Shown piece by piece: positions 12,019 to 42,200 of a stretch of DNA of 64,000 nucleotides (position 1 is its first letter; each line of letters starts with the position of its first letter). The stretch is taken from the IMG/VR virus record IMGVR_UViG_3300042691_003004, one strand, 5' to 3'. The translations under genes were made by a program, and so were the position numbers. Origin of the DNA: an uncultured virus (IMG/VR IMGVR_UViG_3300042691_003004). Lineage: Duplodnaviria > Heunggongvirae > Uroviricota > Caudoviricetes. The notes beneath the pieces are model-generated. The model did not search any database. It was not told the DNA's origin and saw nothing but the letters and a program-made list of their open reading frames with translations.

Positions 12019-12393
12019 TTACGCACGCGTGATGCCACGCGGATCAGCCACGACTGCTTCGATGGAGTCGTCGTTCATCAGGCGGTATTCCACGCCATTA
12101 ACTCGGATGCGCGTGCCAGAGTTAGCACGGAACACCACAAAGTCACCAACCTTGCACCAAGGGCCATTTGGGAAACGATCCTTGTCCGCATAGGCTTGTT
12201 CGCCCATATCAAGCACTACACCCGTCACAGTCATTAACTGTTCTTCGTACATAGTGCGCTCGGACTTCACGATGCCCAGTTCGTTAAAAGTTTCTTCGAT
12301 CTGGGGCAGCGCAATCAGCAACCTATACCCGACGGGTTTTGGCATTTGAGCTTCAATCTCGTCATCGGTAACGGCGGTCTGGTTTTCACTCAT
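12019..12393 (-). CDS. groES: Co-chaperonin GroES-like protein
   Basis: KPVGYRLLI, GVVLDMG, KVGDFVVF, EYRLMNDDSIEAVV. Confidence 0.8.
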   Translation of the reverse strand: MSENQTAVTDDEIEAQMPKPVGYRLLIALPQIEETFNELGIVKSERTMYEEQLMTVTGVVLDMGEQAYADKDRFPNGPWCKVGDFVVFRANSGTRIRVNGVEYRLMNDDSIEAVVADPRGITRA

Positions 12394-12583
12394 CATCATC
12401 TTCCATTTGAGAACGCGAAAGGTCTTTCGTGGTTTGGATGGCAAGCTGGAGACCTCGAATCCTGCCTACCACTTCCCGGTACTCGTCGAATGATTTACAC
12501 CCGCCGCTTACTAAGAACTGCGTTGAGGAAGCCACATCTTCCTCAAACTTGTTTACAAGCACGTCAAAGACGGTTTTTGCCAT
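12386..12583 (-). CDS. Small head-module protein
   Basis: FDEYREVVGRIRGL; between portal and GroES. Confidence 0.6.
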   Translation of the reverse strand: MAKTVFDVLVNKFEEDVASSTQFLVSGGCKSFDEYREVVGRIRGLQLAIQTTKDLSRSQMEDDDE

Positions 12584-17860: not shown

Positions 17861-17879
17861 TGTTAGGGATTCCCTAACA
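17861..17879. repeat. Palindrome copy 1 TGTTAGGGATTCCCTAACA
   Basis: Read directly; upstream of promoter P1. Confidence 0.95.
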
Positions 17880-17903
17880 GATCGTGCCAGATCGTGCCAT
17901 TCC

Positions 17904-17932
17904 TTGACAGGTAACACGTTATCGCGTACAGT
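17904..17932 (+). promoter_or_regulatory. Early sigma70 promoter P1
   Basis: TTGACA-17 bp-TACAGT. Confidence 0.7.
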
Positions 17933-17994
17933 TCATCCCATCGAACGACGCATCTAGTTCGATACCAACTCAACCCGATGCACAAGGAAAAACC

Positions 17995-18525
17995 ATGAAA
18001 GCAACTAACAACGTCAAAGTGTCCAACGAAACCCTGAAGGACATCAGTGCTTGGTCTGGCAAGTCTGCGCAAGCTGACAAGGCAAAGACCAAGGCAGTCG
18101 ACGCGCTTCACGCTGATGGGGTAACAGCGGAAATGCTCAAGGCACCGGGCAAGGATGAGCCCCGCGCACTGTACGAAGCGGTGCAAGTTAGCATCGTGCT
18201 CGGGTTCACGACGGCAGTGCAAGTGCTCTTGAAGAAAGACACCAAGACGCTCAGCGAGTCGCAAAAGACGGACAAGCGTTACTGGCAACAGCAGATCGGC
18301 TCGAAGATGAAAGACCTGCGCAATGCCTTGTCAAAGCGTGAGCGTCAGGGTGAGGAATCAGACGGCGCTGGGTCTGATAAGTCGTCATGGGAAGCGACCA
18401 AGCGTAAGGTGCTCGCTGAGATGATTGACCAAGCACAGAAGAAAGAAAGCACCACGATCAAGGACATCAGCGCCTTCATCAAGGACCTGCAAAACGCACT
18501 CGCTCGCATCCCTGCGAATGCGTAA
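17995..18525 (+). CDS. Early hypothetical protein (176 aa), monocistronic
   Basis: AAGGA RBS; own promoter and terminator; flanked by palindromes. Confidence 0.75.
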   Translation: MKATNNVKVSNETLKDISAWSGKSAQADKAKTKAVDALHADGVTAEMLKAPGKDEPRALYEAVQVSIVLGFTTAVQVLLKKDTKTLSESQKTDKRYWQQQIGSKMKDLRNALSKRERQGEESDGAGSDKSSWEATKRKVLAEMIDQAQKKESTTIKDISAFIKDLQNALARIPANA

Positions 18526-18543
18526 GTTAGGGAATCCCTAACA
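18525..18543. repeat. Palindrome copy 2 AGTTAGGGAATCCCTAACA
   Basis: Abuts TAA stop. Confidence 0.95.
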
Positions 18544-18544
18544 G

Positions 18545-18572
18545 AGCCCCGCGAAAGCGGGGCTTTTTTTTT
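18545..18572 (+). terminator. Intrinsic terminator
   Basis: AGCCCCGC-GAAA-GCGGGGCT plus T run. Confidence 0.9.
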
Positions 18573-18641
18573 GTCCAAAAATCCTGCGCGATGACTTCGC
18601 ACCCTGCACCCGTGAGCCTTTGTGAGCCTGATCAACCCGGT

Positions 18642-18660
18642 TGTTAGGGATTCCCTAACA
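18642..18660. repeat. Palindrome copy 3 TGTTAGGGATTCCCTAACA
   Basis: Read directly. Confidence 0.95.
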
Positions 18661-18751
18661 ACCAATGATGCCAGTTCCCAGAGCAGCGGCGAGCGGCAAT
18701 GTTCGAAAACGACAATGTTCTATTGTTCGTTAATCCTAATGTTCGATTGTT

Positions 18752-18770
18752 CGTTAGGGACTCCCTAACA
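18752..18770. repeat. Palindrome copy 4 CGTTAGGGACTCCCTAACA
   Basis: Read directly. Confidence 0.95.
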
Positions 18771-19198
18771 ATGTTCGATTTCAACACACAAACTCGTTGT
18801 TATGGTGTGTTTACAATGTTCGATTTTTCGATAATGTTCTACGAATGTTCCTATAATGTTCTGTTGCTACGGTACATTATAGTTTGATGCCAGTTCCTGA
18901 AGCGGCGTGGCGGGCCGTGCTGTTTTGTGCCTATCAGAACGTGCACTTCTATATCATTTCTTAACAAAGTCATAAATGTTCGATTTTCAAAAAAAACACC
19001 CACTACCTTTTTTATTTTTCCGCGAGCGCGCCCCAAGGCTATGCGTAATCCGCGTCCAACTCGCAGGGGGTAGGGTGTGTCCTTTTTTGCCAGACTTATA
19101 GAACAATATGGCACATCAAGGACTTGCACAACTACATTATAAGAACATTCAGTACATTACACCTTTCAGCAGCCCCTGCCACGCCCCACCAGAAACAC

Positions 19199-19227
19199 TT
19201 GACAAATGTCACGTTTTGATATATAAT
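19199..19227 (+). promoter_or_regulatory. Early sigma70 promoter P2 (consensus)
   Basis: TTGACA-17 bp-TATAAT. Confidence 0.9.
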
Positions 19228-19289
19228 AGAGGTTGATTAGGTGGAAAAAGCGAACAAAGCAAATCGACCGAAATCGAACAAAGGAACAT

Positions 19290-19308
19290 TGTTAGGGACT
19301 CCCTAACA
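19290..19308. repeat. Palindrome copy 5 TGTTAGGGACTCCCTAACA
   Basis: In leader downstream of P2. Confidence 0.95.
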
Positions 19309-19343
19309 GAACATTCGAACTAACCAAAAAAGGAACATTACCC

Positions 19344-19559
19344 GTGGGACACAACCGCCGACTCAAACCCCGGTGCGCCTCGTGCGGCGACACCTACAGC
19401 CCCAAGCGTGCCAACGCGGGCTACCATCTGTGCATGCCTTGCGGCGATACCCAAGCCCGAGCCGTGCGCCACACCATCGCCCCGATGAACAAATCCAACT
19501 ACATGCTGTTCACCGACATCAGCCTGCTCAAACAACTCAATCCAAAACGCACCACGTGA
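19344..19559 (+). CDS. Small Zn-finger early protein
   Basis: CASC...CMPC; AAAGGA RBS. Confidence 0.65.
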   Translation: MGHNRRLKPRCASCGDTYSPKRANAGYHLCMPCGDTQARAVRHTIAPMNKSNYMLFTDISLLKQLNPKRTT

Positions 19560-19566
19560 GAAAAAC

Positions 19567-19731
19567 ATGACCGACCTATTCAACCTACCCTTTCACGAGT
19601 ACATGTCACGGCGCACCAAGTTCGCCGTTGACCGTGCACAACGCGACAACCTGATCACCATCGATTACGCCGGGCTCGCCCTACTCCAAGCAATGTGGGC
19701 ACGCGAATACTGGCTAAACCGCAACATGTGA
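19567..19731 (+). CDS. Small hypothetical protein (54 aa, MTDLFNLPFHEY...)
   Basis: Below cutoff; tiles the operon. Confidence 0.5.
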   Translation: MTDLFNLPFHEYMSRRTKFAVDRAQRDNLITIDYAGLALLQAMWAREYWLNRNM

Positions 19732-19739
19732 GGTACACC

Positions 19740-19913
19740 ATGAAACAACTTATCAAGCGCATCGCATTACGTATGCTCGAACTCATCCTGTGCGTAGCCA
19801 TTGCCATCGTGCTCGCGGTTGCCATACTCGAATGGTTCGCAGGGTGCGGTGAAACGTACATCGACAGCAAGGGCAAACGGCACGCCCATGAGTGCCTGTT
19901 TATCGGAAGGTGA
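19740..19913 (+). CDS. Small membrane protein
   Basis: GAGG RBS; single hydrophobic helix followed by EWFAGCGETY. Confidence 0.6.
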   Translation: MKQLIKRIALRMLELILCVAIAIVLAVAILEWFAGCGETYIDSKGKRHAHECLFIGR

Positions 19914-19930
19914 CAGACCATAGCAAATCA

Positions 19931-19959
19931 TTGACAAACGTGACATCCTGTGTTATACT
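19931..19959 (+). promoter_or_regulatory. Early sigma70 promoter P3
   Basis: TTGACA-17 bp-TATACT with extended -10 TG. Confidence 0.85.
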
Positions 19960-20003
19960 GTAGTCTGTTCAGTCGATAAGCGTCTGGACAAGCAAACCAA
20001 ACC

Positions 20004-20022
20004 CGTTAGGGAATCCCTAACA
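20004..20022. repeat. Palindrome copy 6 CGTTAGGGAATCCCTAACA
   Basis: Upstream of RBS of 20040. Confidence 0.95.
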
Positions 20023-20039
20023 AACCAAAGGAACTAACC

Positions 20040-20957
20040 ATGAACATGCAAGCCCCCACCATCGCCGCCCCGAGCATCTCGTCCTCGGCTGTCCTCATCG
20101 ACCTGTCCATCTCGTGCTGGACTGGGCGCAAGCTCGACAAGCGCGCATCCAATGACATCACCACACAAAACGGTGCCGCCAAGGGTGTAGCCAACGTGCA
20201 CAAAAAGCTCCTCGGTGACTGCGCCGAATTGGATGCGGTGCAGAAGTTCGCAGCCAACGCTCGCAATGCGCACTACGCCATGACGATGCCGTGGTCAGAC
20301 CTTGGCATGCGGCTGTGCCCCACGGCTAAGTACATCGGTACACCAGACCGGGATGGCTACGAGTCGACGATGACCGACCTGCAAAACGAGTTCTGGCGGC
20401 TTGTTCAGTTGTTCCTCGATGCGTACGACTGGGAGCGTGGGCAAGCGCAGGTCAAGCTCGGCGGCATGTGGAACAGCGACGACTACCCCACGCGGGAAGC
20501 AATCGCCTCGAAGTTCAAGTTCCGGTTCGTGGCTATCCCCCTGCCAGATGCGGGTGACTGGCGGCTCGACATCGGCAATGAGGCAGCCGCCGTCATGCGT
20601 GAGCAGTATGAGAAGTTTTACGGTGATCAGTTGACTAAAGCCATGAATGACGTGTGGGGGCGTGCCCACGAGGCGCTGTCTAAGATGTCTGAGCGGCTCG
20701 ACTACGCCGACGACACCACAAAGAAGGTATTCCGTGACACGCTGGTGACCAACGTGCAGGAGATCGTCGACCTGCTGGGCACCATGAACGTGACGGGCGA
20801 CCCGGTGATGGCTGATGCACACCGCCGCCTCGACCAAGCGATGCAAGGCATCACACCCGATGCCCTGCGTGAGGACGCATACCTGCGTGCTCAGACTAAA
20901 CGCCAAGTCGATGAGGTCAAGCGGATCATCGACAACCTGCCCGGGCTGGGGTTCTGA
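20040..20957 (+). CDS. DUF3150-like protein
   Basis: LIDLSISCWTGRKLD N-terminus, DYP...KFKF; adjacent to AAA/VWA pair. Confidence 0.55.
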   Translation: MNMQAPTIAAPSISSSAVLIDLSISCWTGRKLDKRASNDITTQNGAAKGVANVHKKLLGDCAELDAVQKFAANARNAHYAMTMPWSDLGMRLCPTAKYIGTPDRDGYESTMTDLQNEFWRLVQLFLDAYDWERGQAQVKLGGMWNSDDYPTREAIASKFKFRFVAIPLPDAGDWRLDIGNEAAAVMREQYEKFYGDQLTKAMNDVWGRAHEALSKMSERLDYADDTTKKVFRDTLVTNVQEIVDLLGTMNVTGDPVMADAHRRLDQAMQGITPDALREDAYLRAQTKRQVDEVKRIIDNLPGLGF

Positions 20958-20964
20958 CCCGCTA

Positions 20965-20983
20965 CGTTAGGGAATCCCTAACA
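20965..20983. repeat. Palindrome copy 7 CGTTAGGGAATCCCTAACA
   Basis: 7 bp after stop. Confidence 0.95.
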
Positions 20984-21059
20984 TTTCACCATGCCATCAC
21001 ACTCATTGGCGAACCACAAAGTTCACGTAACAAAACTCAACTAACTGAAGGAAAACATC

Positions 21060-22154
21060 ATGGCTAACCAAGCAATCGCAATGTACGCACTGGGCCTCGA
21101 CCAGATCGAAACCGCCATCCGTCTGGGTGGTAACAAGCGAACCATCCTCGTGCAAGGTCACATGGGTACGGGCAAATCATCACTACTCAAGGCATTGGGT
21201 AAGGCACTGCCCGGACACACCATGTGCTACTTCGACTGCACGACCAAGGACCTCGGCGACATCACCATCCCACAACTGCAAACCATCGACGACCAAGGCT
21301 TTGTGCGGTACGTGACCAATGAGGAGTTGGGGTTGCACCTGTCCAAGCCGATCATCCTGATGATCGATGAGTACGGCAAGGCTAACCCTGCGGTGAAGAA
21401 CGCCATGCTCAGGCTCATGCTCGAAGGCAAGCTCGGCTCGTACGAACTGCACCCTGCCTCGTTACGGTTTGCGACCACTAACCTCGGCTCCGAGGGCGTG
21501 GGTGACATCCTGCCGCCGCATGCTCGCAACCGCATGACCGTGATCACTGCACGCAAGCCGTCCAACATGGAATGGATCGAGTGGGGTATCAACAACGGTG
21601 TCGACCACACCTTGCTTGGCTGGTGCAAAGATAACCCGCAACTGTTTCACTCGTTCGAGGACATCAAGGACCCCGACCAGAACCCTTACATCTTTCACCC
21701 CAAGGCGGCACGTACGTCATTCGTGACTCCTCGGTCACTCGAAGCGGCGTCCGACTGGCTGAAGGTGCGGGCGGGCATGGACGACCAGACCCTGACATCT
21801 ATGCTCATGGGCACTATCGGTGAGCGCGGTGCGATGGACTTGATGGCATTCGTTAAGTTGTCAGACCAACTGCCATCGTTGCAGTCAATCAAGGACGACC
21901 CGATGCAAGCGAAGGTACCTGACTCGGATGCTGCCGTGTGTATGGTGGTGTACCGCACCTTGGCAACCATCGACCGCGAGTGGGTCGATCAGTGGATGGA
22001 CTACATGGCGCGTCTGGACAAGGAAGCGCAGGGCCTGTTCGCCAACGGTGTGCGCAACCCGAAGTACAACAAGCAGGCGCTCGTGATGACCAATAAGAAG
22101 TTCACCAAGTGGGCGATGGACAACAACTACATGTTCGCCGCTGACAAGAAGTGA
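21060..22154 (+). CDS. MoxR-type AAA+ ATPase
   Basis: Walker A GHMGTGKS, Walker B ILMIDE, ATTN sensor, TPRS. Confidence 0.8.
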   Translation: MANQAIAMYALGLDQIETAIRLGGNKRTILVQGHMGTGKSSLLKALGKALPGHTMCYFDCTTKDLGDITIPQLQTIDDQGFVRYVTNEELGLHLSKPIILMIDEYGKANPAVKNAMLRLMLEGKLGSYELHPASLRFATTNLGSEGVGDILPPHARNRMTVITARKPSNMEWIEWGINNGVDHTLLGWCKDNPQLFHSFEDIKDPDQNPYIFHPKAARTSFVTPRSLEAASDWLKVRAGMDDQTLTSMLMGTIGERGAMDLMAFVKLSDQLPSLQSIKDDPMQAKVPDSDAAVCMVVYRTLATIDREWVDQWMDYMARLDKEAQGLFANGVRNPKYNKQALVMTNKKFTKWAMDNNYMFAADKK

Positions 22155-22173
22155 TGTTAGGGATTCCCTAACA
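22155..22173. repeat. Palindrome copy 8 TGTTAGGGATTCCCTAACA
   Basis: Abuts TGA stop. Confidence 0.95.
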
Positions 22174-22192
22174 AACCAACCAAGGAACAAAC

Positions 22193-23419
22193 ATGTTAAT
22201 GATCGGTAAACAACTGACCGCTGAACAGCGGTTGACCAAGGCTGTCGTGGACATCATGGCGTCACCCAAGTACGTGGCGCTCGCTGGTGTGCTCATGGTG
22301 GGCAAGCGTGAGATCGACGACAAGGTGCCGACTGCGTGCACTAACGGTCGGGACGAGGCGTACGGGCGTGCGTTCGTCGAATCCCTTAACGATGCTGAAC
22401 TGCGGTTCCTCGTTCTGCACGAGTGCTATCACAAGTTGTACAAGCATCTGACCACGTGGCGTCATCTGTACGACGAGAACCCCGTGCTTGCCAACGTCGC
22501 ATGTGACTACGTGATCAACATCAAGATCACCGACGACAACGGGGATGGGTTTGCCAAGATGCCCATGCGTGGGGGTAAAGCTGTCGGTGTGCTCAATGAG
22601 AAGTATCGGGGCATGGACTCGGCGCAGGTGTACAAGCTGCTCAAGGACGAGCACGAGGGTGGGGGCGGTGGTGGGTCGGGCGACGGCTCGGGAACTGGCA
22701 TCCCGCAGCCCGGCTCAGGCTCTGGGCTTGATGATCACGACTGGGAGGGGGCGCAAGCTCTCACGCAGGAAGAACGCAAGGCGCTTGAGCGTGACCTTGA
22801 CGAAGCCATCAGGCAGGGTGCGTTGATTGCAGGCAAGCTCGGCACGGGTGGTGACCGCGACATCGAGGCGTTGCTTCAAACCAAGGTCGACTGGCGCGAA
22901 GCTCTGCGTGAGTTCATCAGCACCACATGCGCGGGCAATGACTACTCAACATGGCGTAGGCCGAATCGTCGGTTCGTCAGCATGGGCCATTACTTGCCAT
23001 CAGGTGTGAGCGAACAAGTGGGCGAGCTTGTGATTGCCATCGATACATCAGGCTCCATCGGTGGACGCGAGTTGTCGCAGTTTCTCGGTGAGGTCAAAGG
23101 CATCTGCGACAGCGTGCGCCCTGACTGCATCCGACTGCTGTACTGGGACACCAAGGTGTGCGCTGACGAGAAGTACGTGGGCGCAGAGGTTGAGAACATC
23201 GTCAACAGCACCAAGCCTGCGGGGGGTGGGGGCACGAGTGTTGGGTGTGTGCCTGAGTACATGACTGAGCATGCCATCAAGCCGCAAGCTGTGGTGGTGC
23301 TCACCGATGGCTATCTCGGCGGTAGCTGGGGTACGTGGACTGTACCTGTGCTGTGGTGCATCGTCGGTGGTAACAGCGCCGTGGCTGACTGCGGTAAGAC
23401 GATTCACGTGAACGACTAA
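22193..23419 (+). CDS. Metallopeptidase-like + VWA protein (DUF2201-like)
   Basis: HECYH (HExxH), MIDAS DTSGS, GGGT, LTDG. Confidence 0.8.
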   Translation: MLMIGKQLTAEQRLTKAVVDIMASPKYVALAGVLMVGKREIDDKVPTACTNGRDEAYGRAFVESLNDAELRFLVLHECYHKLYKHLTTWRHLYDENPVLANVACDYVINIKITDDNGDGFAKMPMRGGKAVGVLNEKYRGMDSAQVYKLLKDEHEGGGGGGSGDGSGTGIPQPGSGSGLDDHDWEGAQALTQEERKALERDLDEAIRQGALIAGKLGTGGDRDIEALLQTKVDWREALREFISTTCAGNDYSTWRRPNRRFVSMGHYLPSGVSEQVGELVIAIDTSGSIGGRELSQFLGEVKGICDSVRPDCIRLLYWDTKVCADEKYVGAEVENIVNSTKPAGGGGTSVGCVPEYMTEHAIKPQAVVVLTDGYLGGSWGTWTVPVLWCIVGGNSAVADCGKTIHVND

Positions 23420-23438
23420 TGTTAGGGACTCCCTAACA
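23420..23438. repeat. Palindrome copy 9 TGTTAGGGACTCCCTAACA
   Basis: Abuts TAA stop. Confidence 0.95.
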
Positions 23439-23454
23439 ACTTAGGAATTACATC

Positions 23455-23673
23455 ATGACCAATATCCTACAAACGTATTCCATGGCGTACATCACGTTCA
23501 CAGATGGTACGACGCAGGAGTTCAAGGTGAAGGCGGCACCGAGTGTGGTGCCCCACCTCACCAAAGAAATGAAATCTTCAGGGTTCCTGACTCTGTGGAA
23601 CGACACCGACACGTTGTGCATCCGTGCCGATGCGATCAAACAATTTTCGATGCGCGAACTAACCAAGGAGTAA
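23455..23673 (+). CDS. Small early protein (possible paralog of 24625-24912)
   Basis: AGGA RBS; operon tiling. Confidence 0.65.
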   Translation: MTNILQTYSMAYITFTDGTTQEFKVKAAPSVVPHLTKEMKSSGFLTLWNDTDTLCIRADAIKQFSMRELTKE

Positions 23674-23678
23674 CTAAC

Positions 23679-24623
23679 ATGCGATTCAACACATTCGATC
23701 AGGTCGCGGCTGCGTACAACAACATCAAGCCCATCAAGAGCAAGTATCACACGGGTGAGCATGACGTGCGCCCTATCGGCCAACGTCGTCGTAAGTGGGA
23801 ACGTATTAAGAAGATAGACGACAACACCTACGCCCTATGTGATGGTTCGTATGGCAACCACATGTACGGCAACGTGTCGCCTGAGCAGCATGAGTACGAG
23901 AATGCCATGGCACCTATCTTGTGGATGCGGCGCGAGGACGGTGACTTCATCCGTATACGCAATCATCTTCGCGGTGCGTGCAGCTACTCACGCTACAACT
24001 TCTTACGCTGGCAACTGCCGAAGCAGATGTGGTTTGGGTACAACCAGCAAGGGCAGCACTGGATCGAGTACGCAGGTACGCAGTATCACTTACCCAAGAG
24101 CAAGGGGGCATGGAACAACCAGAGCCAAACGTTCACGGATGACAACATGTTCTTGTTGTTCCGTGCGAATGAGGATGGCACGTTCACTCGTGCGGGTAAC
24201 AAGATGCGGTACACGTCTACGCATGTGGACAAGGCGCTCAAGGACGCATGGCGTGCCCGCATCGAATCGTTCTATACGTACTGCGGTGCGCTTGCGCCAA
24301 TCATCAAGACAGACTGGGAGGCACGGCACGAGTACACCAACATGATACGAGGGTACACGTTGGACTGGGGTACGCGGCAAGGCATGGGCAATCTGGTCGG
24401 TGCATACATGCGCCCGGCTACTACGGGAATACCGTCGGACCTTGTGCGTGAGATTGTCACTGAGGAAGATCATCCCATGCGTGTGGCGTTCGCAGCGTTG
24501 GTGGTCTATGAGATCGATGCGAAGCGGGTGATCGAGAGCAAAGCGCAGTTGCAAAGTATCAGATCGGCGTTCAATCGCCTGATGAACAAAACGTTGAACC
24601 TGTACAAAGTTGAGGAGGTGTGA
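23679..24623 (+). CDS. Early hypothetical protein
   Basis: AAGGAG RBS before MRFNTF. Confidence 0.7.
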   Translation: MRFNTFDQVAAAYNNIKPIKSKYHTGEHDVRPIGQRRRKWERIKKIDDNTYALCDGSYGNHMYGNVSPEQHEYENAMAPILWMRREDGDFIRIRNHLRGACSYSRYNFLRWQLPKQMWFGYNQQGQHWIEYAGTQYHLPKSKGAWNNQSQTFTDDNMFLLFRANEDGTFTRAGNKMRYTSTHVDKALKDAWRARIESFYTYCGALAPIIKTDWEARHEYTNMIRGYTLDWGTRQGMGNLVGAYMRPATTGIPSDLVREIVTEEDHPMRVAFAALVVYEIDAKRVIESKAQLQSIRSAFNRLMNKTLNLYKVEEV

Positions 24624-24624
24624 G

Positions 24625-24912
24625 ATGGCGAACTCTATATTGACATCGCAAGAGATGATTAGCAGCGCACGAGAGATGCTAAAGAGGGAGATGCAGCGAA
24701 ACGAAGTGTTCTCGCTTTGTGAGGTCACCCTCAAAGATGGCACCGTGCTTGGGCCGATCATGTTGGAGATGACACCGTATGACATCGAGCGCATTCAAAA
24801 AGTTGCAGATGGGTTCAACATGCTCGCGCTGGCTAATCAAAACGAGTCGCTACTTGTGCCCGTGGCAGATATCAAGCACATCAAGATGATGCGCGTAACG
24901 AGTAAGGAGTAA
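24625..24912 (+). CDS. Small early protein
   Basis: GGAGG RBS before MANSIL. Confidence 0.65.
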   Translation: MANSILTSQEMISSAREMLKREMQRNEVFSLCEVTLKDGTVLGPIMLEMTPYDIERIQKVADGFNMLALANQNESLLVPVADIKHIKMMRVTSKE

Positions 24913-24916
24913 TCAC

Positions 24917-25876
24917 ATGTACAAACACATGCCTGTTGATAAGTTGGAACGTGAGCATCAAGCATCGTTGAAGTTCCGTGAAACGCACATGGATACAACG
25001 GACGAGGAAACGCGGCGGCAACTTGCGCGTGTCAGTGTTGATGTCATGGGGCTACCTGCGACACGACAACTCGCGGAGTTTTGCTATGAGGTACGCAAGA
25101 TCGCACGTGGTGTGAAGTTTGCCGCAACACGTAATGGCAAAGCCACGTGGCTAGAGGGTCACCAACTTGTGTCCGAGGTCTGGGTGTACTACCCGGATGA
25201 TGAGTTCGCATTCGCACGGATTGGGTACGCCGATTACTCCGTGAGCGGCACCAACTCCAAGTACGGTGTGTATTCACGGCACATCGAAAACCAGAAGTTT
25301 GGTGACGACCGAGAGCAACGTCACATGGTGTTGTCGGACGACCTTGCACGCGCTGTGCGTAACTTCAAGAAGTACTTGCGTCGCTATTCACTCCAAGAGA
25401 CAGCAACCATGCGGCTGGGTGACTTCTCATCAAAGATCAGCACGCTGTCGTGGGGTGCATCGACTGAGTATGCCTCTGCGAGGTCTGGGTTGGTCGAGCA
25501 TCCGTCGTTCTATGACGAGATGTGTTCATTGCTTGACCGGGGCTATGAGTTCATCAACCCTGCGTTCAAGCTGCGCGTCGCTGAGATGGTGGAGAAGAAA
25601 AAGATTGCAGCCGCGCGGAGTAACGCCGTACACCACGCGTACTACGTGACTGCGCGAGATCAAAACGGTGAGCAAGTGTTTGATGTGATCTTTGTCTGTG
25701 ATCTCAAACACACGAACAGCACGCAGACTCATTACTCGCTAAGCATGGACGCGGTGGAAGCACTCGAAGCCGAGTTGCCCCATAAACTTGCCGCCCTGTC
25801 CATGCTTGAGGATGGTGGGTTCGTCGAAGGGTTGGGCATGCGCGTGTCTGCCAAAACTTATTGGGTGTTGAAATGA
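24917..25876 (+). CDS. Early hypothetical protein (319 aa)
   Basis: AAGGAG RBS; long ORF. Confidence 0.7.
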   Translation: MYKHMPVDKLEREHQASLKFRETHMDTTDEETRRQLARVSVDVMGLPATRQLAEFCYEVRKIARGVKFAATRNGKATWLEGHQLVSEVWVYYPDDEFAFARIGYADYSVSGTNSKYGVYSRHIENQKFGDDREQRHMVLSDDLARAVRNFKKYLRRYSLQETATMRLGDFSSKISTLSWGASTEYASARSGLVEHPSFYDEMCSLLDRGYEFINPAFKLRVAEMVEKKKIAAARSNAVHHAYYVTARDQNGEQVFDVIFVCDLKHTNSTQTHYSLSMDAVEALEAELPHKLAALSMLEDGGFVEGLGMRVSAKTYWVLK

Positions 25877-26361
25877 CTACCGTCGTTAGGCACAAGGTCG
25901 ATAACTTGTTTGGGTGGAACGACCTGCGTCAGGTTGAGAACGACCCCGACCAGATATCGCGGTACATAATTTCTGCGAAGGGGCAGTTGACCCGAGGCGA
26001 ACGACAAATCTATGTGACCAACATCGTGTCGTTTGAACAATACTTATCAGGGGCGGGAAGCACATCAATGCGCATGGATATGGCTGAGTACCCATCAGAT
26101 GACAGGTTATGGCGCATAGGTATATTCCCCGATGGAGTTGATGTCGTTTGTTTAGGCGTTGATAGTGTTGACTCCAATTTGGAAGGACACTATGATCGTA
26201 TCGACGACTTACCCAACTGGGTTAAGGAGCGACTCGCTGTATTGAGCATGATGTCTGCTACTCCCCCCACTGCAACGGTGGAGGGAGTAGGGCGTCGCAT
26301 CTCTGCGCACGTGTACTGGGTGGTAGCACCGAGTACATCGCAGGCGTCCACGTCCGCTTGA
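25873..26361 (+). CDS. Early hypothetical protein
   Basis: ATGA overlap with previous stop; C-terminus resembles that of previous ORF. Confidence 0.6.
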   Translation: MTTVVRHKVDNLFGWNDLRQVENDPDQISRYIISAKGQLTRGERQIYVTNIVSFEQYLSGAGSTSMRMDMAEYPSDDRLWRIGIFPDGVDVVCLGVDSVDSNLEGHYDRIDDLPNWVKERLAVLSMMSATPPTATVEGVGRRISAHVYWVVAPSTSQASTSA

Positions 26362-26371
26362 CGTGTGTGAC

Positions 26372-26390
26372 TGTTAGGGACTCCCTAACA
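26372..26390. repeat. Palindrome copy 10 TGTTAGGGACTCCCTAACA
   Basis: Immediately upstream of RBS of 26407. Confidence 0.95.
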
Positions 26391-26406: not shown

Positions 26407-26766
26407 ATGAGAAGAAAACTCAGCACCACCGAGAAGGTGCGGCGACTGATCGATCAAGGCTACACAAACAAAGCCATCATCGACAAGTTACGCATCAAGC
26501 CGCAGGCGGTTTACAACATCCGGTATCAAATCAACAAGGCTCGGGGGCTGGGTGCCATTGGCACCCCCACCCCTACGCCCGCTGACGGTATCGGTGCGCC
26601 CCCAAAGCGTAAGTACACACGGCGCATTCGCGCGGGGGAACTGGCATCACCGCCCTTTGAACCCGCCAACTTAAAAGAACCGCCACAGCCGTACACGGCG
26701 ATCATGATCGAACCTGAAGCCAAGCCGACCCTGTGGCAGCGCATCGTCAAACTTTTCAAGAGATAA
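26407..26766 (+). CDS. Putative HTH DNA-binding protein
   Basis: GYTNKAIIDKLRIKPQAVYNIR resembles a helix-turn-helix. Confidence 0.5.
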   Translation: MRRKLSTTEKVRRLIDQGYTNKAIIDKLRIKPQAVYNIRYQINKARGLGAIGTPTPTPADGIGAPPKRKYTRRIRAGELASPPFEPANLKEPPQPYTAIMIEPEAKPTLWQRIVKLFKR

Positions 26767-34385: not shown

Positions 34386-34793
34386 ATGACCGAAGAAACT
34401 AAAGACACCGTACCAGTCGAAAAGCTGGTCAAGGTGTATCTCAAGATGAACGCCAAGCTGAGCGAACTTAAAGCGGCTTTTGAGGCTGAGGAGAAGGCGC
34501 TCAAAGAGCAGATGACCAAGGTGAAGGGTGCATTACTGACGTACTGCAAGGAGCAAAACGTCGAGTCCGTGCGTACTGCTGAGGGGCTGTTCTACCGTGG
34601 TGTAACGACCCGCTATTGGACGAACGACTGGGAGTCCATGGGCAGGTTTATCGTCGAGAACAACGCCCCAGAACTGATGGAGAAGCGCCTTCACCAAGGC
34701 AACATGAAACAGTTTCTGGAAAACAACCCTGAACTCCTGCCCCCGGGTCTCAACGTGGACAGCGAGTACACCATCACTGTACGGAGAAAGTAA
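34386..34793 (+). CDS. Replication-module hypothetical protein
   Basis: GGAGA RBS; coiled coil then SVRT..G, LPPGLN. Confidence 0.7.
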   Translation: MTEETKDTVPVEKLVKVYLKMNAKLSELKAAFEAEEKALKEQMTKVKGALLTYCKEQNVESVRTAEGLFYRGVTTRYWTNDWESMGRFIVENNAPELMEKRLHQGNMKQFLENNPELLPPGLNVDSEYTITVRRK

Positions 34794-35065
34794 TGAGCGA
34801 ACCGTTTGTGCCGATTGAAGATTTGGCTAAGCACTTCACGGTCTCGGTATCGACAGTCCGTGCTTGGGTGCGTCAGGATTTGATACCCAAGGATACGTAC
34901 ATCAAGGTGGGTAACACCTACCGATTCAGCATATCCAAAGTTGTCGAAGCACTGACCACAGCACCCAAGGCAGAGCCGCCGACGACCGATACCTCGGCCC
35001 TAGAAGCCGAAAAAGCCCCAGTCCAACTCGAACTTGACTTCACCAACCCCGATAAAGACATCTAA
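34793..35065 (+). CDS. Excisionase-like HTH DNA-binding protein
   Basis: IEDLAKHFTVSVSTVRAWVRQDLIP...KVGNTYRF. Confidence 0.75.
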   Translation: MSEPFVPIEDLAKHFTVSVSTVRAWVRQDLIPKDTYIKVGNTYRFSISKVVEALTTAPKAEPPTTDTSALEAEKAPVQLELDFTNPDKDI

Positions 35066-36070: not shown

Positions 36071-38965
36071 ATGGACACAAGAACATTTCTGGAGGCGGTG
36101 CTGGGAGATGAGGGTACGTATTGTGTGTGGGCCAATCGGATTACCGATGGGCGCAAGGTACAGAAGTTCTACCCTACGATTGAGGCACTGATCCATGCGG
36201 CCAACAATTTAGATGAAGATGGGTACGACGCGTACTTTGCGCTAGGAACTTTTGACGAGGCTGGGTCTCGTGAAGGTAGCCACGTAAAGCAACTCAGGGC
36301 GTTCTTCCTCGACCTAGATTGTGGGCCAACAAAAGAGTACGCATCTCAGAGTGAGGCGCTGACTGCGCTTCGCTCGTTTTGTAAACAAGTAAAGTTACCC
36401 CGACCGACCCTGATCAACTCGGGACGAGGCGTCCATGTGTACTGGGCGCTGACTGCGCCTGTTTCACGTGAAACATGGCAACCTGTTGCCGAGCGCCTCA
36501 AGGCCCTGTGTAAACAGCACAAGCTCTATGCTGACCCCGTAGTGACGGCTGACGCCGCCCGAGTGCTGCGAGTACCCGGTACCCACAATCATAAGGACAC
36601 ACCCCCTACGGAGGTGATCGTCGTTGGGGAGGCAGCAAAGCCGGTCGACTGCACTGCCTTCTCAGAGTTGCTGGGCGACGTAGCAGTTGTCGAAGATATC
36701 TTTAAGGGCGCTCGCAATAAGTTCGTACCGCGAGAGAACGACGCCCTGATGCAGGCGTTGTCCGGCAGTTTTGTCAGCCGCTTTAAGACCATCATGCTCA
36801 AGACGGTGGCGGGCAAAGGCTGTGCACAACTGGCTGAGGTTGTGCAGAACCAAGAAAACATATCAGAACCATTGTGGCGTGCCGGGCTGTCGATTGCGAA
36901 GTTCTGTGTTGATGGTGGCACCGCCATACACCGTATCTCAAACAAGCATCCACAGTACACCGAGAACGCGACCGAAGAAAAAGCGGCTCGTATTCAGGGG
37001 CCGTACTTATGCGAACGGTTCGATGAATACCGTGCTGGGGTGTGTCCGACGTGTCCGCACTGGGGCAAGATCAAATCACCGATCAGTCTTGGGCGTGAGA
37101 TTGAAGAAGCAAGTGAGGACGATAACGTCGTCATACAAAAGCCGCTCGGCGTAACTGATGCGGTGCCAATCAAATACGTAATACCAAAATACCCAGCGCC
37201 ATTCTTTCGTGGCAAATCGGGCGGGGTGTTCAGGCGCGGTAAGCAGGTGTTCAAAGAAAACGGTGAGGTCGACGAAGAAGCGTCCAAGGACAAGCTGGTT
37301 TACTTCAACGACCTGTATGTGGTGCGCAGACTCAAAGACCCGGAGATGGGCGAGTCGCTGGTGATGCGGTTGCATCTACCAAAAGATGGCGTCAGGGAAT
37401 TCACGCTCCCACTGACCGCCGTAGGTTCGAAGGATGAGTTCCGTAAGTACCTTGCTATGCAGGGGGTTGCGGTGCTTGGCGTAGCTGAATTGATGGAGTA
37501 CACGATGCAGTGGGTAAACAACTTACAGTTAACGACCGAAGCTGAAGAAGCTCGGCGACAATTTGGATGGGTCGATGAAAAGTACGAGTCCTTCGCGCTG
37601 GGCAACATGCTCGTGTACAAGGACAGGGTTGAGGTCAACGCACCGTCCGGTGCCACAGTCGGCCTGTTCCCATACTTCCAGCCCAAGGGCACGCTTGCTG
37701 GGTGGAAAGAAACCATGAAGTTCTATGACCGCCCGGGTATGGAGCCACATCAGTTCATGGTGGGCTTAGCTTTCGGTGCCGTGCTCATGGAGTTCCAGCC
37801 GATCAACGCCGCAGCGTTCCACATGTACTCAAAGGAGTCGGGTCTTGGTAAGACCACCGGCATGCTGGCAGGAGCGTCTGTCTGGGGTGACCCCGATCTG
37901 CTGATGATGCAAGAGCGGGACACAATCAATTCGAAGATGAACCGCGCCGAGGTGTACAAGAACGTCGTCTGCTACATGGACGAGTTGACCAACACCAAAC
38001 CACAGGACTTGTCGGACTGGGCGTATCAACTTCCTAGCGGACTTCAACGCAACCGCATGGGGCCTAAGAACAACGTTGAGCGCGTGCGCGGTAAGCCATG
38101 GAAAACCTTATTCGGCACCACGGGCAACACGTCAATGCTGGAGCGTATCGCGCTGTACAAAGCACTCCCAAAAGCAGAAGCGCAGCGTATCTTGGAGCAC
38201 CGAGTTGAGCGCCTGAACTTTGCCAGTAAGTCTGAGACCGATGCGTTTGCTACCGCCATCAAAGAGAACTATGGGGTAGCCGGGGTACCGTACTTACAGT
38301 ACCTACTCAATGACCTTGAAGGCGCGAAGAAGTTAGCCAACGCTGTGCAAGGGAAGATCGACCTGCAAGCCAACCTTACTGCTGAGAACCGATTCTGGTC
38401 TGTCTTGGTATCTCGCCCCATCGCTGGGCTCATGCTGGCTCGGAGAGCAGGGCTTCTGGACTGGAAGATCGAGCCTATCGTTAAGTGGGCCATCCATACC
38501 ATGCAGGTTGCGCAGAGTATGGTGCGGGAGATGAACGCTGATGTGGAAGCGATTCTCACCGACTACTTGGCCGAGCACTACAACAGCATGCTCCGTATCA
38601 AGTCAACAGATGACAGCCGTAAAGGTAACACCGGGCTCGACCATTTAATTCAGCCGGACGCGATTCCCCGAGGTAACTCGTTTATTGCACGGTACGAGTA
38701 CGACGTGAAGAAGTTGTACCTGTTACCGAAACCACTGAAAGAGTGGTGCGGCAAGCAGCAGATCAACTACTCAGGGTTCATTGAGGGGCTGAAAGCTGGG
38801 CGCACCAAAGCCACCCGCACAAAGATACGGCTGTCCAAAGGTACACAAATGAACTTACCGCCGACTGACGTGTTTGTACTGGATTGCACCGAGTTCATGG
38901 ACGATGAAGCTGAGCAAGCTATGGCAACAACCTCCGCGCTTTTTCAAGCACAGAGTTCGGATTGA
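36071..38965 (+). CDS. Primase-helicase (AEP/RepB-like primase + DUF927-like ATPase)
   Basis: FLDLD, SGRGVHVYW, RVLRVPGT; Cys cluster; ESGLGKT, YMDE. Confidence 0.8.
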   Translation: MDTRTFLEAVLGDEGTYCVWANRITDGRKVQKFYPTIEALIHAANNLDEDGYDAYFALGTFDEAGSREGSHVKQLRAFFLDLDCGPTKEYASQSEALTALRSFCKQVKLPRPTLINSGRGVHVYWALTAPVSRETWQPVAERLKALCKQHKLYADPVVTADAARVLRVPGTHNHKDTPPTEVIVVGEAAKPVDCTAFSELLGDVAVVEDIFKGARNKFVPRENDALMQALSGSFVSRFKTIMLKTVAGKGCAQLAEVVQNQENISEPLWRAGLSIAKFCVDGGTAIHRISNKHPQYTENATEEKAARIQGPYLCERFDEYRAGVCPTCPHWGKIKSPISLGREIEEASEDDNVVIQKPLGVTDAVPIKYVIPKYPAPFFRGKSGGVFRRGKQVFKENGEVDEEASKDKLVYFNDLYVVRRLKDPEMGESLVMRLHLPKDGVREFTLPLTAVGSKDEFRKYLAMQGVAVLGVAELMEYTMQWVNNLQLTTEAEEARRQFGWVDEKYESFALGNMLVYKDRVEVNAPSGATVGLFPYFQPKGTLAGWKETMKFYDRPGMEPHQFMVGLAFGAVLMEFQPINAAAFHMYSKESGLGKTTGMLAGASVWGDPDLLMMQERDTINSKMNRAEVYKNVVCYMDELTNTKPQDLSDWAYQLPSGLQRNRMGPKNNVERVRGKPWKTLFGTTGNTSMLERIALYKALPKAEAQRILEHRVERLNFASKSETDAFATAIKENYGVAGVPYLQYLLNDLEGAKKLANAVQGKIDLQANLTAENRFWSVLVSRPIAGLMLARRAGLLDWKIEPIVKWAIHTMQVAQSMVREMNADVEAILTDYLAEHYNSMLRIKSTDDSRKGNTGLDHLIQPDAIPRGNSFIARYEYDVKKLYLLPKPLKEWCGKQQINYSGFIEGLKAGRTKATRTKIRLSKGTQMNLPPTDVFVLDCTEFMDDEAEQAMATTSALFQAQSSD
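36460..36475. promoter_or_regulatory. parS: Perfect parS consensus TGTTTCACGTGAAACA within primase ORF
   Basis: Exact match to canonical 16-bp chromosomal parS; function is inference. Confidence 0.6.
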
Positions 38966-39167
38966 CGACCTTGCCCCGGATGGGGTGCTCATCCGGGTAG
39001 CGTGGGATAAGTTTGTACCCGGGGCGTCAGTGTTCGTCCCGTGCATTAACACGCTTGAATGCGTGCGGCAGTTCTACGATATAGCCCGGCACAAGGACTG
39101 GACGATAGACACCCGCATCGGTATAGAGGGCGGGCGATGGGGGGTTCGCTTTTGGAGGGTGCTGTGA
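38904..39167 (+). CDS. Small hypothetical protein overlapping primase end (start uncertain)
   Basis: WDKFVPGASVFVPC...GVRFWRV. Confidence 0.5.
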   Translation: MKLSKLWQQPPRFFKHRVRIDDLAPDGVLIRVAWDKFVPGASVFVPCINTLECVRQFYDIARHKDWTIDTRIGIEGGRWGVRFWRVL

Positions 39168-39178
39168 TAGGATTTCCG

Positions 39179-39246
39179 TGACGGTGCAGTTGCCGTCATC
39201 GTGTTTCTCCTTCAGACAGCCCCCGGGTTCGCTCGGGGGCTTTTTT
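39179..39246 (+). ncRNA. Candidate trans-acting anti-RBS small RNA
   Basis: Extended -10 TGaTAGGAT (39165-39173), 5' hairpin, linker complementary to phage RBSs, terminator. Confidence 0.6.
39219..39246 (+). terminator. Intrinsic terminator where the two arms converge
   Basis: GCCCCCGGG-TTCG-CTCGGGGGC + T6. Confidence 0.85.
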
Positions 39247-42200
39247 CAATCTTCGTCATCATCGTCAAAGATTGACACGTTGCGGTCGTACTCGGCGGCG
39301 TTAGCCATCAACTCCGCACGTATCACCTTATTTAGGGTGATGCCGTGGTACATCTCGCTTGTGGTACGCATGTGCTGCTTCATAGAACGCACGATGGTAT
39401 CTGCGGTAACCAAGCCCGGGTGTTTGCGCCCAAGCTCCATAAGTTCTTCCATGTACTCCTGTGCCCCGCTGCTGTCGCCAAGCCGGGTGGATATGTAAAA
39501 CTTACGTAGCAGATCGGTGCGCTTCTCAAGCGTACGACGCTCAATGTTCTTGAGCGCGGCGTTCTCCTCCAACTGCCGGGTGTACTCGGCGGGGGCAAAA
39601 CCAAACGCTTGAGCCAATGAGTGACCGGCACCGATCTCACCGACAATCGGGTCACCGCGCAGTGTGTTTGCGCCTTCCGTTGCAAACCGCCCTGCCTTCA
39701 TCAAGTTACCAAACGCAGCCGGTGCCACTTGTTCTAGGCCGCGCTGAGTTTCGCCATCCATGATCATCTTGGCACCACGAGCCACACGATCTGCCACGCC
39801 ATACACGGGGCCACCCACGAGTTGCAGGAAGCTCAGAACAGCGCTGTCTTGGTCGCGGTACCCGGTGCTGTGGAACAGCAGGTCGGACAAACCGATACGG
39901 TTGGCAATAGCAGTGCCGGTCAGGAAGTTCAACGCGCCGTTGAACATGCCCTCACCCAAGTACTTGCGAGTGGCGGTCTCGGCGTCGTCCTCATCATCGT
40001 CTTTGAGGAACAGGTTGTAGAGCGCGGCGGCTACGCCGAACATCGGCACCCCTTGCGCCCCAGCAAGTATCGCGGACGACATGTACACCCCAGCGATTTG
40101 CCGTTTGGCGGCTTTGCGAATCTCTGGGTCCTCCGACACCATGGCGTCGCGGGTGGTCTTAAACAACATGTAATACATCGATACGCCGTATCGCTTGTAC
40201 ATGAACACCATCTTGCCGATTGAGTTCTTAGCCAGCAGAGGTGCACTGTTGGCAGACGCACCGCCGTTTAGCAACTCGGTTGCGTTGATGGCTTCTTGCG
40301 CCGCTTGGGTACGTTGCTCAGGTGTGAGTTCTTTACCTTTGTTCTCTTTGCGCAGACGGTCAAGCTCTAGTCTGTACGCCGCAATCATCGACACTTGGCG
40401 GTTCATACGCTCGCCGTGGTGGAAGATAAACCCAGACCACGCATTGACTTTGGCGAGCGGGCCATCTGCCGCACCTGTGTCGAGGATGTCGCTGGTCAAA
40501 GAGCGGCTAAGCAAGCCGTACTGACTGGACAGGTCGGACAGTTCACGCAGATCAAGGATAGCTTTCTCACCAGCGGTCAGAGTTTTCTTCTTAGCCAGCG
40601 CGTCGAAGTCGTAGTTGTCGAGCGAGTACCCGGCTTTCAGCTCCACGGGGTCACCCCCACCCGTGGTCTTGGCTTTGCGTTTGAGCCCTGAGCCAAAGAA
40701 CAACCGCGTAGCCGCACCGAGTGCTGCGTTAGTTTCACCGTAGCCATACTTCGCCCCGAGGTATGGCATGACGACCATGGGCAACTGAGTCAAGTTGACC
40801 AGTGCGGACGAGACGTTGAAACCCAGCGTCCAGCCAAACGCGGTTGATGTCGCCGCCTTTGCAAGCGGTGAGATGTTTGGCGCGACCATGGACTTGATGT
40901 GCCCGTCCATGACATCAAACAACATCCGCGCTTCTTCGGATTTGTTTTTGACCTTGACGTGTTCTTCCATCTCATCACGCAGCTTGTACATCTTGTTGCC
41001 ATACTCAAGGTTGGCTAACTGATGCGCCATGCTGATGGACTTGGAGTAAAACACTTTTGACGCGTTGGTCTCGGCACCGAGCGTACCAAGACGTGCACGG
41101 AATGACTGTGCGAACGAGGACTCAGGCAGCGTGTCGAGGAACACACGCATGATCTCGTCAGTCACCGTGGGGTCGACACTGTTAGCGTCGAGCACCTTGA
41201 GAATACTGTTGACGAACGATGTCGGCGGGGCGTCCTTGTAGTTACGCTTGGCTGTCGGTGCGGACTTCTGAACTGACTTGGCGTCCACGTTTGCATCGGC
41301 TTTGAGTTCACGTATGGCGCGATCTCGTTCAACCGACGTTTCGAACGCCATCTTGTAATACTCCAAGTTGCCGTTAGGCCCCTTAGCGTTAAACGTGACC
41401 CAGTAGTCACCCTGACGCATCAGCGGGAAGTACGGTTCGACCTTACCTTTGACCGCAAGGCGTTGATAGATTTCTTGCCGTAGCTTCTTTGCATCCGCAG
41501 GGTCTTTGACCGAGGCATCGATACGACTAAACAGCAGTTCCAGCAGCTTCTCATGTGATTCAGCGTATGAGTCGCGCATCTGCTCGTAAACGGCCTGCCC
41601 CTCCGGCCCCAGCGCCTTCCAGTCAACTTGTAGCTTGTCCCAAACTACCTGCTTATCCTCGTTGCCTTTGGTCTGCTTACCCTTGTAGCTGTCGCGCTTC
41701 TTGCTGGGGTCTACCTCAGCTATCGTAGACGCCATGATCAATCTATTCAGCGCGGCTTCTTTCTGGGGGTTACCGTCAGCCCACTTCCGAATCTTGTTGT
41801 ACGTTGCGTCTACCGCACGGCGGCGTACATCGATGGCACCGTTCCACAGCTTTTCCAACGTGTCCAACTGTTTGGCCATCGGGATTTGCTCAACCGCCAC
41901 ATCCGTCAGAGCGTTGAGTGGGAGGCTGCGTAGGATTATGTCTTTGGTGGCGGTAGGAATCTTCTGACGTAACACTTCGTAGATACGGCCAACAAACTGA
42001 TTGTTGACCATAGGCATGCCGACGATCTTGTCGTCCAGTGCACGGAATACGTCTGCCGACGCACCCAGTAACGACGCACGGTACATCGACCCCACCGGTA
42101 CACCGGTCGGAGAGATGATGGACATGATGGCAACATCTGCCGAATCCAGCGCAGACCCGATGCCCTTGGTAGGCAGGCCCACCAGCGTGCGTACGAAGTT

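Follow-up and report, generated by a model that had tools for sequence, protein, structure and literature searches.

Dispersed intergenic palindromes in the early arm of an uncultured phage family co-vary with a candidate DNA-binding protein

Short repeats placed between genes have been described in several groups of phages. This report concerns a stretch of 64,000 nucleotides from an uncultured virus (IMG/VR record IMGVR_UViG_3300042691_003004), referred to below as the window, in which a 17-bp palindrome, GTTAGGGA-N-TCCCTAAC, is repeated along the early arm, and the product of the first early gene, gp1. The element is real and conserved and, on sequence comparison, is tied to this specific, unclassified phage protein. 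gp1 probably binds the palindromes as DNA.

Among described systems, the repressor and stoperators of Cluster A mycobacteriophages (L5 gp71, Bxb1, TipsytheTRex) offer the fullest parallel. As set out in the accessible parts of PMC9283540 and PMC6550527, one phage protein of about 180 amino acids (aa) serves many intergenic, non-promoter sites; as in the gp1 system, the consensus is genome-specific and diverges with the protein, and a block of elongation has been proposed. The same sources describe the stoperators as asymmetric 13-mers that are orientation-dependent, bound by a monomer and distributed genome-wide, some being true operators, and the phages as carrying an integrase or parABS. In contrast, the sites described here are perfect-dyad palindromes of 15–19 bp that are confined to the early arm and avoid promoters. 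Tyrosine integrase (PF00589), serine resolvase (PF00239) and ParA (PF13614) gave no match in any of 24 near-complete relatives, ParB not being among the families searched, and gp1 has no tblastn match at E ≤ 1 in 50,697 phage records.

Closer in architecture is the 17-bp repeat of Cluster O mycobacteriophages such as Corndog, which, according to the available text of PMC4351075, has invariant 7-bp arms and a 3-bp spacer, lies mostly off promoters and occurs in phages without an integrase, all as found here. Corndog differs in having 34 copies, many within genes, and a single sequence type; a dimeric protein is suggested by its authors, and the text available names neither binder nor role. No gp1 homologue was detected in Corndog with a profile that finds 16 of 24 genomes of the present family; unlike in Cluster O, a candidate binder is singled out here by co-variation. 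The 18-bp inverted repeats of Microbacterium Cluster EG phages (PMC7302621, as far as its text was available) resemble the present sites in copy number (8–10) and in occupying short intergenic gaps. They lie 14–22 bp upstream of start codons in phages without an identified repressor or integrase, with no binder named in that text, and differ in having another sequence, conserved across the cluster. The PeSL cassettes of T4-type phages are likewise repeated regulatory modules between variable early genes; in the parts available of PMC4122927 and PMC2839356 they appear as terminator–promoter composites that work through homologous recombination (PMC4122927), whereas the palindrome considered here is matched to a protein and lies downstream of promoters, and few inserts have a copy on both sides. 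Among leading literature results, supplements excluded, no description of this family's motif or system was found. Repressor c of phiC31 binds repeated inverted repeats of about 17 bp (CIRs) in the early region; phiC31 is temperate and bears an integrase, unlike the phages with gp1.

The palindrome occurs exactly ten times in the window, between 17862 and 26389, and no eleventh copy exists there even when three mismatches are allowed; shuffled sequence contains 0.08 copies on average and at most one. All ten copies are intergenic, and three directly adjoin stop codons. The centre base is T in three copies, A in three, C in four and never G; the 3′ flank is A in all ten and the 5′ flank T in six. 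Contigs from public sequencing runs, which may include the source sample, cover several sites with zero differences. An earlier note on this DNA, whose coordinates give the base before each start, had described ten copies with invariant arms, all intergenic and absent elsewhere, with the same base counts and three abutting stops, and every one of these points holds. Its impression that the site is oriented extends to the family: in 169 distinct oriented contexts the centre is T in 60, A in 55, C in 51 and G in only three on the sense strand, and the +1 flank is A in 153.

The window comprises most of the genome of an uncultured podovirus-like phage of about 65 kb (the longest sequence bearing this gp1 has 64,896 bp), which belongs to an uncultured, widespread, aquatic family. 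When 80 relative loci were collected by similarity of their AAA ATPase, independently of the motif, 74 had at least three copies of one palindrome, the window's own palindrome reaching six or more copies in only nine. The other arm types in this set are GTTAGGC, GTTAGTG, GTTAGTC, GTTATAC, GTTATCC, TCTAGTC and TTTACGG; more distant relatives have arms TTCGGGC, CCTTAC, TTATGC, GCGTGG and others. The exact window motif is present in 118 IMG/VR stretches, with 250 site occurrences. In a larger set that includes motif-selected loci, a dominant palindrome with at least four copies was seen in 177 of 259 oriented loci; these form 99 clusters with 37 six-letter arm labels, some of them shifted views of one motif. 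About 30 palindrome motif types exist in the family.

At orthologous sites the position is kept and both arms have changed together; the sixth site of the window, for example, is of GTTAGGC or GTTATAC type in relatives. Total span is 15–19 bp in 48 of 53 arm/span classes, in which 3- and 4-base spacers co-occur; 7-bp arms with 3–5-bp spacers predominate, placing the half-sites about one helical turn apart. Within 99 de-duplicated loci, 637 of 753 sites are intergenic, and in complete records, among the matches listed, the sites gather in one arm. A few members depart from uniformity. In the genome of locus L215, which has six GTTAGGC sites, the last position is occupied by a perfect site of GTTAGGG type (G004:C1:31257-31273), a mosaic or remnant left by a switch in specificity. 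Hybrid sites that join the half-sites of two types occur in L233, L234, L240, L244, L248, L249 and L196, and are possible intermediates in a change of specificity. In L194, L195, L214, L220, L222 and L359 perfect repeated palindromes are scarce or absent from the region in view, and gp1 is nevertheless encoded in L194 and L220; the sites of such members are possibly degenerate or of mixed type.

Of the 107 site-bearing loci in which the region can be seen, 98 encode a gp1 homologue, and 71 of these 98 are bracketed by sites (loci not de-duplicated). In the remaining nine the first open reading frame (ORF) has 180–300 aa and no gp1 assignment; in G009, which also gave no match, the gene falls within a contig gap. 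At E ≤ 0.001 the protein has 639 homologue clusters (50% identity) and no Pfam family, and high scores in the ESM Atlas are confined to unnamed viral clusters. One homologue, at L321:613-1167, is encoded on the opposite (−) strand of a distant AAA-bearing phage whose retrieved region shows no dominant palindrome.

The relation between gp1 and site type is most visible where it departs from overall relatedness. The window's closest relatives are phages with GTTAGGC sites (78–79% identity in terS, 88–90% in terL, 82–83% in ORF 20040 and 87–89% in the AAA ATPase; also closest by vWA), and their gp1 is only 24–28% identical to that of the window. Backbone-distant GTTAGGG phages have a gp1 58–71% identical to the window's (37% in L188). 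Twelve genes were compared over discordant triplets, in which backbone and site type disagree and which are not independent of one another. gp1 follows site type in 2329 of 3509 (0.66); ten other genes do so in fractions of 0.03–0.46, and AAA in 0 by construction. By this measure gp1 is the only one of the twelve genes that tracks palindrome type rather than genome backbone, and the triplets show site and gp1 passing as a pair, independently of the neighbouring genes.

Other candidate binders fared differently. The earlier note had proposed three, of which 17995–18525, that is gp1, stands by its co-variation; the two others follow the backbone. The helix-turn-helix (HTH) candidate at 26407–26766 groups by site type in 2 of its 58 discordant triplets, and many site-bearing relatives gave no tblastn match to it. 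For that at 34793–35065, identity is 77 and 75% to GTTAGGC genomes against 70% to a GTTAGGG genome. TerS was also rejected, siding with site type in 549 of 2162 discordant triplets.

The co-variation can be followed to single residues. In the 50 of 68 aligned genomes that have at least three sites and both control genes (AAA and ORF 20040), the class of residue 107 predicts arm base 7 with 0 errors: base 7 is C in 15 genomes, all with Lys or Arg, and G in 35, of which 32 have Asp, one Gln and two Thr. The ten best predictor columns all lie in gp1, none being found among 656 columns of AAA and ORF 20040. The control tree implies six changes of base 7, and residue 107 agrees with the base in all five independent pairs. 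Outside the sample, among 26 new proteins, all 10 that have Asp107 are paired with a G arm, and all three that have Arg, which are near-identical, with a C arm. Residue 103 (Ser/Ala) is partly predictive of arm base 6, with 11 errors in 50 genomes and agreement in two to three of five pairs. Asp reading C, and Arg or Lys reading G, on the partner strand is consistent with general knowledge of protein–DNA contacts.

The AlphaFold2 model of gp1 is all-helical, with a mean confidence (pLDDT) of 87.9 and a pTM of 0.59 (92.8 and 0.77 for the N-domain). It contains a long helix, 88–120, with the conserved residues K91, Q99 and G102 and the type-linked S103 and D107, and a C-terminal helical hairpin, 132–170, which is possibly the dimerisation part; that gp1 would be dimeric is suggested by the dyad of its site. 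Structural comparison of residues 53–114 repeatedly brings up sigma-4 HTH domains among its best matches. The best is 3mzy (Z 6.2, root-mean-square deviation 2.7, 61 residues aligned, below the bar of Z 8); others are 9n9q, 6dv9, 2h27 and 7lq4, several sigma-4 chains scoring Z 4.4–6.0. The VIA list for full-length gp1 is taken up by matches to the C-terminal hairpin. The HTH resemblance is at the level of a lead, as is a feature score of 0.78 between gp1 and PF25746, a family that is not among the 25 listed for alignment.

The placement of the sites relative to genes and promoters in the window is as follows (the palindromes are given without strand).
17862..17878, no strand: site 1, upstream of the gp1 promoter, centre at about −69
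17904..17932, + strand: P1, sigma-70-type gp1 promoter, 10/12 consensus; leader without a site
17995..18525, + strand: gp1, 176 aa, first early gene, candidate cognate DNA-binding protein
18526..18542, no strand: site 2, with the gp1 stop codon on one side and a terminator on the other
18543..18576, + strand: predicted intrinsic terminator of the gp1 transcript
18643..18659, no strand: site 3, in an ORF-free hub; a second conserved, asymmetric motif follows at 18667
18753..18769, no strand: site 4, in the ORF-free hub, amid AATGTTCG repeats
19199..19227, + strand: strong sigma-70-type early promoter, 12/12 consensus
19291..19307, no strand: site 5, about +65 from the start of the 19199 promoter, upstream of ORF 19344
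19931..19959, + strand: strong sigma-70-type early promoter, 11/12 consensus, extended −10
20005..20021, no strand: site 6, about +47 from the start of the 19931 promoter, upstream of the ribosome-binding site of ORF 20040
20966..20982, no strand: site 7, between ORF 20040–20957 and the AAA ATPase gene, 21060–22154
22156..22172, no strand: site 8, after the AAA ATPase stop and before the DUF2201 metallopeptidase/vWA gene, 22193–23419
23421..23437, no strand: site 9, downstream of the DUF2201 gene stop
26373..26389, no strand: site 10, ahead of ORF 26407 (HTH-like by eye; not tracking site type)

Site 1 sits between divergent promoters, late 17570 (−) and early 17904 (+), and lies outside both predicted transcripts. 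No palindrome overlaps the −35 or −10 hexamer of any of the three strong promoters (17904, 19199 and 19931). The earlier note had remarked that most copies avoid promoter hexamers, which is atypical for simple operators, and the family bears this out. Operators of the classical lambda CI/Cro type share the dyad with half-sites about one turn apart and overlap early promoters; here, site centres fall within −45..+10 in 0 of 147 intergenic sigma-70-type promoters, against a null of 29.9 ± 4.7 (minimum 18; 500 draws over de-duplicated loci, start sites estimated from the −10 box). A site lies at +30..+70 in 72 of the 147 (null 17.0 ± 3.7, maximum 28). The gp1 promoter differs in having a site upstream in 16 of 17 loci, at −68 to −91, and one in its leader in 0 of 17. 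Such a layout would suit a repressor that leaves its own gene untouched while stopping elongation at other places.

In the model favoured here, a monocistronic sigma-70 unit would supply gp1 immediately, and gp1 would not shut itself off because the only nearby upstream site lies outside its promoter. A gp1 dimer would read two half-sites one helical turn apart through the long recognition helix, about residues 88–120, with residue 107 (Asp or Lys/Arg) contributing to the discrimination between G and C at arm position 7. As it accumulates, gp1 would fill the sites located +30 to +70 from the other early promoters, as well as those at later gene junctions, and the bound protein would block elongation by host RNA polymerase through the early arm, a stoperator-like silencing. 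This may time the shut-off of early genes or keep a non-integrated genome quiet; gp1 may also act on superinfecting phages of its own type and silence them, a role that would account for the 30 or so specificity types. The probability that this whole model, silencing of the early arm by a gp1 roadblock, is right is put at about 0.55.

Several observations weigh against it. Stoperator repression is orientation-dependent, at least in the parts available of PMC9283540, and a palindrome has no orientation; the strand bias of centre base and flanks is needless for a symmetric dimer on DNA. The absence of promoter overlap is partly a matter of sequence incompatibility, which the null ignores. As to the residue-107 relation, the pair test gives p = 0.0625, the attainable floor; 12 of the 26 out-of-sample proteins have neither Asp nor Lys/Arg at this position, and in L366 an automatic alignment with many gaps places a Lys against a G arm. 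On a tree of gp1 itself that leaves out the helix, there are only two changes of base 7, so the apparent code may partly reflect co-inheritance of whole alleles. All structural Z scores are below 8, chorismate mutases and unrelated helical proteins score equally high, and Foldseek returned nothing at E ≤ 0.001 for full gp1 or its N-domain. Finally, every site folds as a 7-bp RNA hairpin with a stem of about −7.7 kcal/mol, and 42 of 102 early leaders have a second 5′ hairpin that outdoes every one of 30 shuffles, so that RNA structure matters there.

The last points bear on whether the element is DNA or RNA. It could act as RNA, forming a hairpin in intercistronic gaps and early 5′ leaders to which gp1 binds for translational control, stabilisation, processing or as an antitermination mark; the co-changing arms that keep such a stem, the strand bias, the 5′ hairpins nearby and a site centre 20–35 nt ahead of the start codon in 335 of 906 site contexts would all fit. 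Yet only three of 33 single-mismatch variant sites are G·U-compatible, and most are hybrids of known half-sites in which the stem is broken, a pattern that favours readout of duplex DNA (several are orthologous copies, so that independent events are fewer). Loops are arbitrary, at 3–7 nt; in 16 of 17 loci neither predicted transcript includes site 1; and an Rfam search of the window at gathering threshold found no match. The avoidance of centre G can be read as avoidance of a Shine-Dalgarno mimic, since G makes GGGA-type sites stronger mimics (−8.4 against −5.5 to −5.8 kcal/mol); this account covers GGGA-type sites only and fails for the three-base spacers of GTTAGGC and GTTATAC sites, which also avoid G (16:0 and 12:0). 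GTTAGTG sites tolerate a centre G (79 C, 58 G). On balance an RNA element seems unlikely, slightly more so than a purely architectural role, in which gp1 binds DNA to loop or compact the early arm, or organises the hub (sites 2–5, the second motif and the AATGTTCG repeats) for replication or DNA protection, and the sites are intergenic merely because there is room. That role is also unlikely, although the co-variation fits it equally well, four sites and other repeats are packed into 800 bp of ORF-free hub, and promoters are avoided altogether; the pile-up at +30..+70 (72 against 17) and the empty gp1 leader suggest a transcriptional logic instead.

Improbable, for its part, is a positive regulator that activates its own promoter from upstream and, at downstream sites, loads onto or modifies RNA polymerase for read-through. 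The site at −68 to −91 and the weak sigma-4-like resemblance of gp1 are what it has in its favour, but the upstream distances are not in a single helical phase, no general enrichment is seen at −95..−45 (17 against a null of 24), and the early promoters, being near-consensus (10–12/12), need no activator. Very little speaks for recombination or cassette sites of integron or PeSL kind that exchange early genes. Sites do mark variable junctions, and recombination at repeats is reported for Cluster O phages in the available text of PMC4351075 and may arise as a by-product; at least two perfect sites occur at only 7 of 99 insert-bearing junctions, however, the 24 genomes yielded no tyrosine or serine recombinase family match, and co-variation with gp1 would be left unexplained. 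Of the three roles that the earlier note had offered, a binding site for a dimeric protein is supported by the gp1 co-variation, recombination is not supported on the junction count and RNA marks are less favoured. Least credible of all is a host regulator site or host methylase target with a core containing GANTC: this is central in all ten window copies, but it is missing from other palindrome types and occurs 155 times across the window, and the site tracks a phage gene. A GTDB scan for the site gave 34 single, scattered matches and no multi-copy genome.

Two further ideas were set aside. Site-to-site joints in one sequencing run have a short side of only 21–22 letters and were treated as repeat mis-mapping. 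Hairpin promoters of the N4 type were rejected: near-consensus sigma-70 promoters are present here, and no RNA polymerase family match was found in 60 scanned proteins.

Other repeated elements share the region. In the early leaders of the window (19966–19991) and of relatives a 5′ hairpin stands right at the estimated transcription start, and a GGAAUUCGC-like loop is present in 28 of the leaders. The second motif of the hub, GA(T/A)RCCAGTT...GCGGCG, lies at 18667–18690 and 18887–18910. In relatives it occurs in 327 sense and 84 antisense contexts, 93 of them 10–19 nt past a palindrome centre and others just after terminator U-tracts, and it is unchanged across palindrome types. Direct repeats of the AATGTTCG type occupy 18712–18987 and 19273–19340, with inverted counterparts about 500 bp off around an AT-rich stretch; this repeat region is origin-like in appearance.

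In the window, terminase, capsid and adaptor genes are transcribed leftward from 17560, and the early/replication arm runs rightward from 17904 with AAA ATPase, DUF2201, PolA, SNF2 helicase and DUF927 primase genes. The AAA ATPase and DUF2201 metallopeptidase/vWA pair (21060–23419), with sites on its flanks, is kept across the family and distantly resembles N4 gp24-type ATPases (25% identity). Cultured relatives are distant (best identity 29% for AAA, 37% for PolA and 46% for TerL, the last with HTVC023P-type and similar phages), have a different gene order and gave no gp1 match; GTDB contains no AAA relative of the window. The head module includes a GroES/Cpn10-like gene (12019–12444). Two very large proteins belong to the virion module, one of 2145 aa with LPD39 (39246–45683) and one of 2029 aa without a Pfam family (49517–55606). 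Where the two arms converge (38965–39241), there is a possible unannotated small ORF (38874–39167) and a bidirectional-looking terminator (39218–39241).

A bolder version of the silencing model is tentative and rather doubtful. In it gp1 would be the master repressor of dormancy and superinfection immunity in a family without integrase or partition genes, and would found a new DNA-binding family whose 30 or so orthogonal specificities are set by a few helix residues; silencing would be achieved solely by downstream roadblocks, and the gene would have been swapped between lineages, the ten dispersed sites then being re-tuned. What the comparison adds is a candidate protein for an architecture that, as far as the available accounts of Clusters O and EG go, was known in integrase-less phages as orphan intergenic palindromes without binder or function; the pair of gp1 and site also gives predictions at the level of residues. 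If the model is true, these phages would yield a DNA-binding family, so far unclassified, that comes in many natural specificities, possibly a set of orthogonal elongation roadblocks, and would show a protein and ten dispersed sites switching specificity together, with hybrid and relic sites still visible. It would bear on whether apparently lytic aquatic phages possess repressor-based immunity or dormancy.

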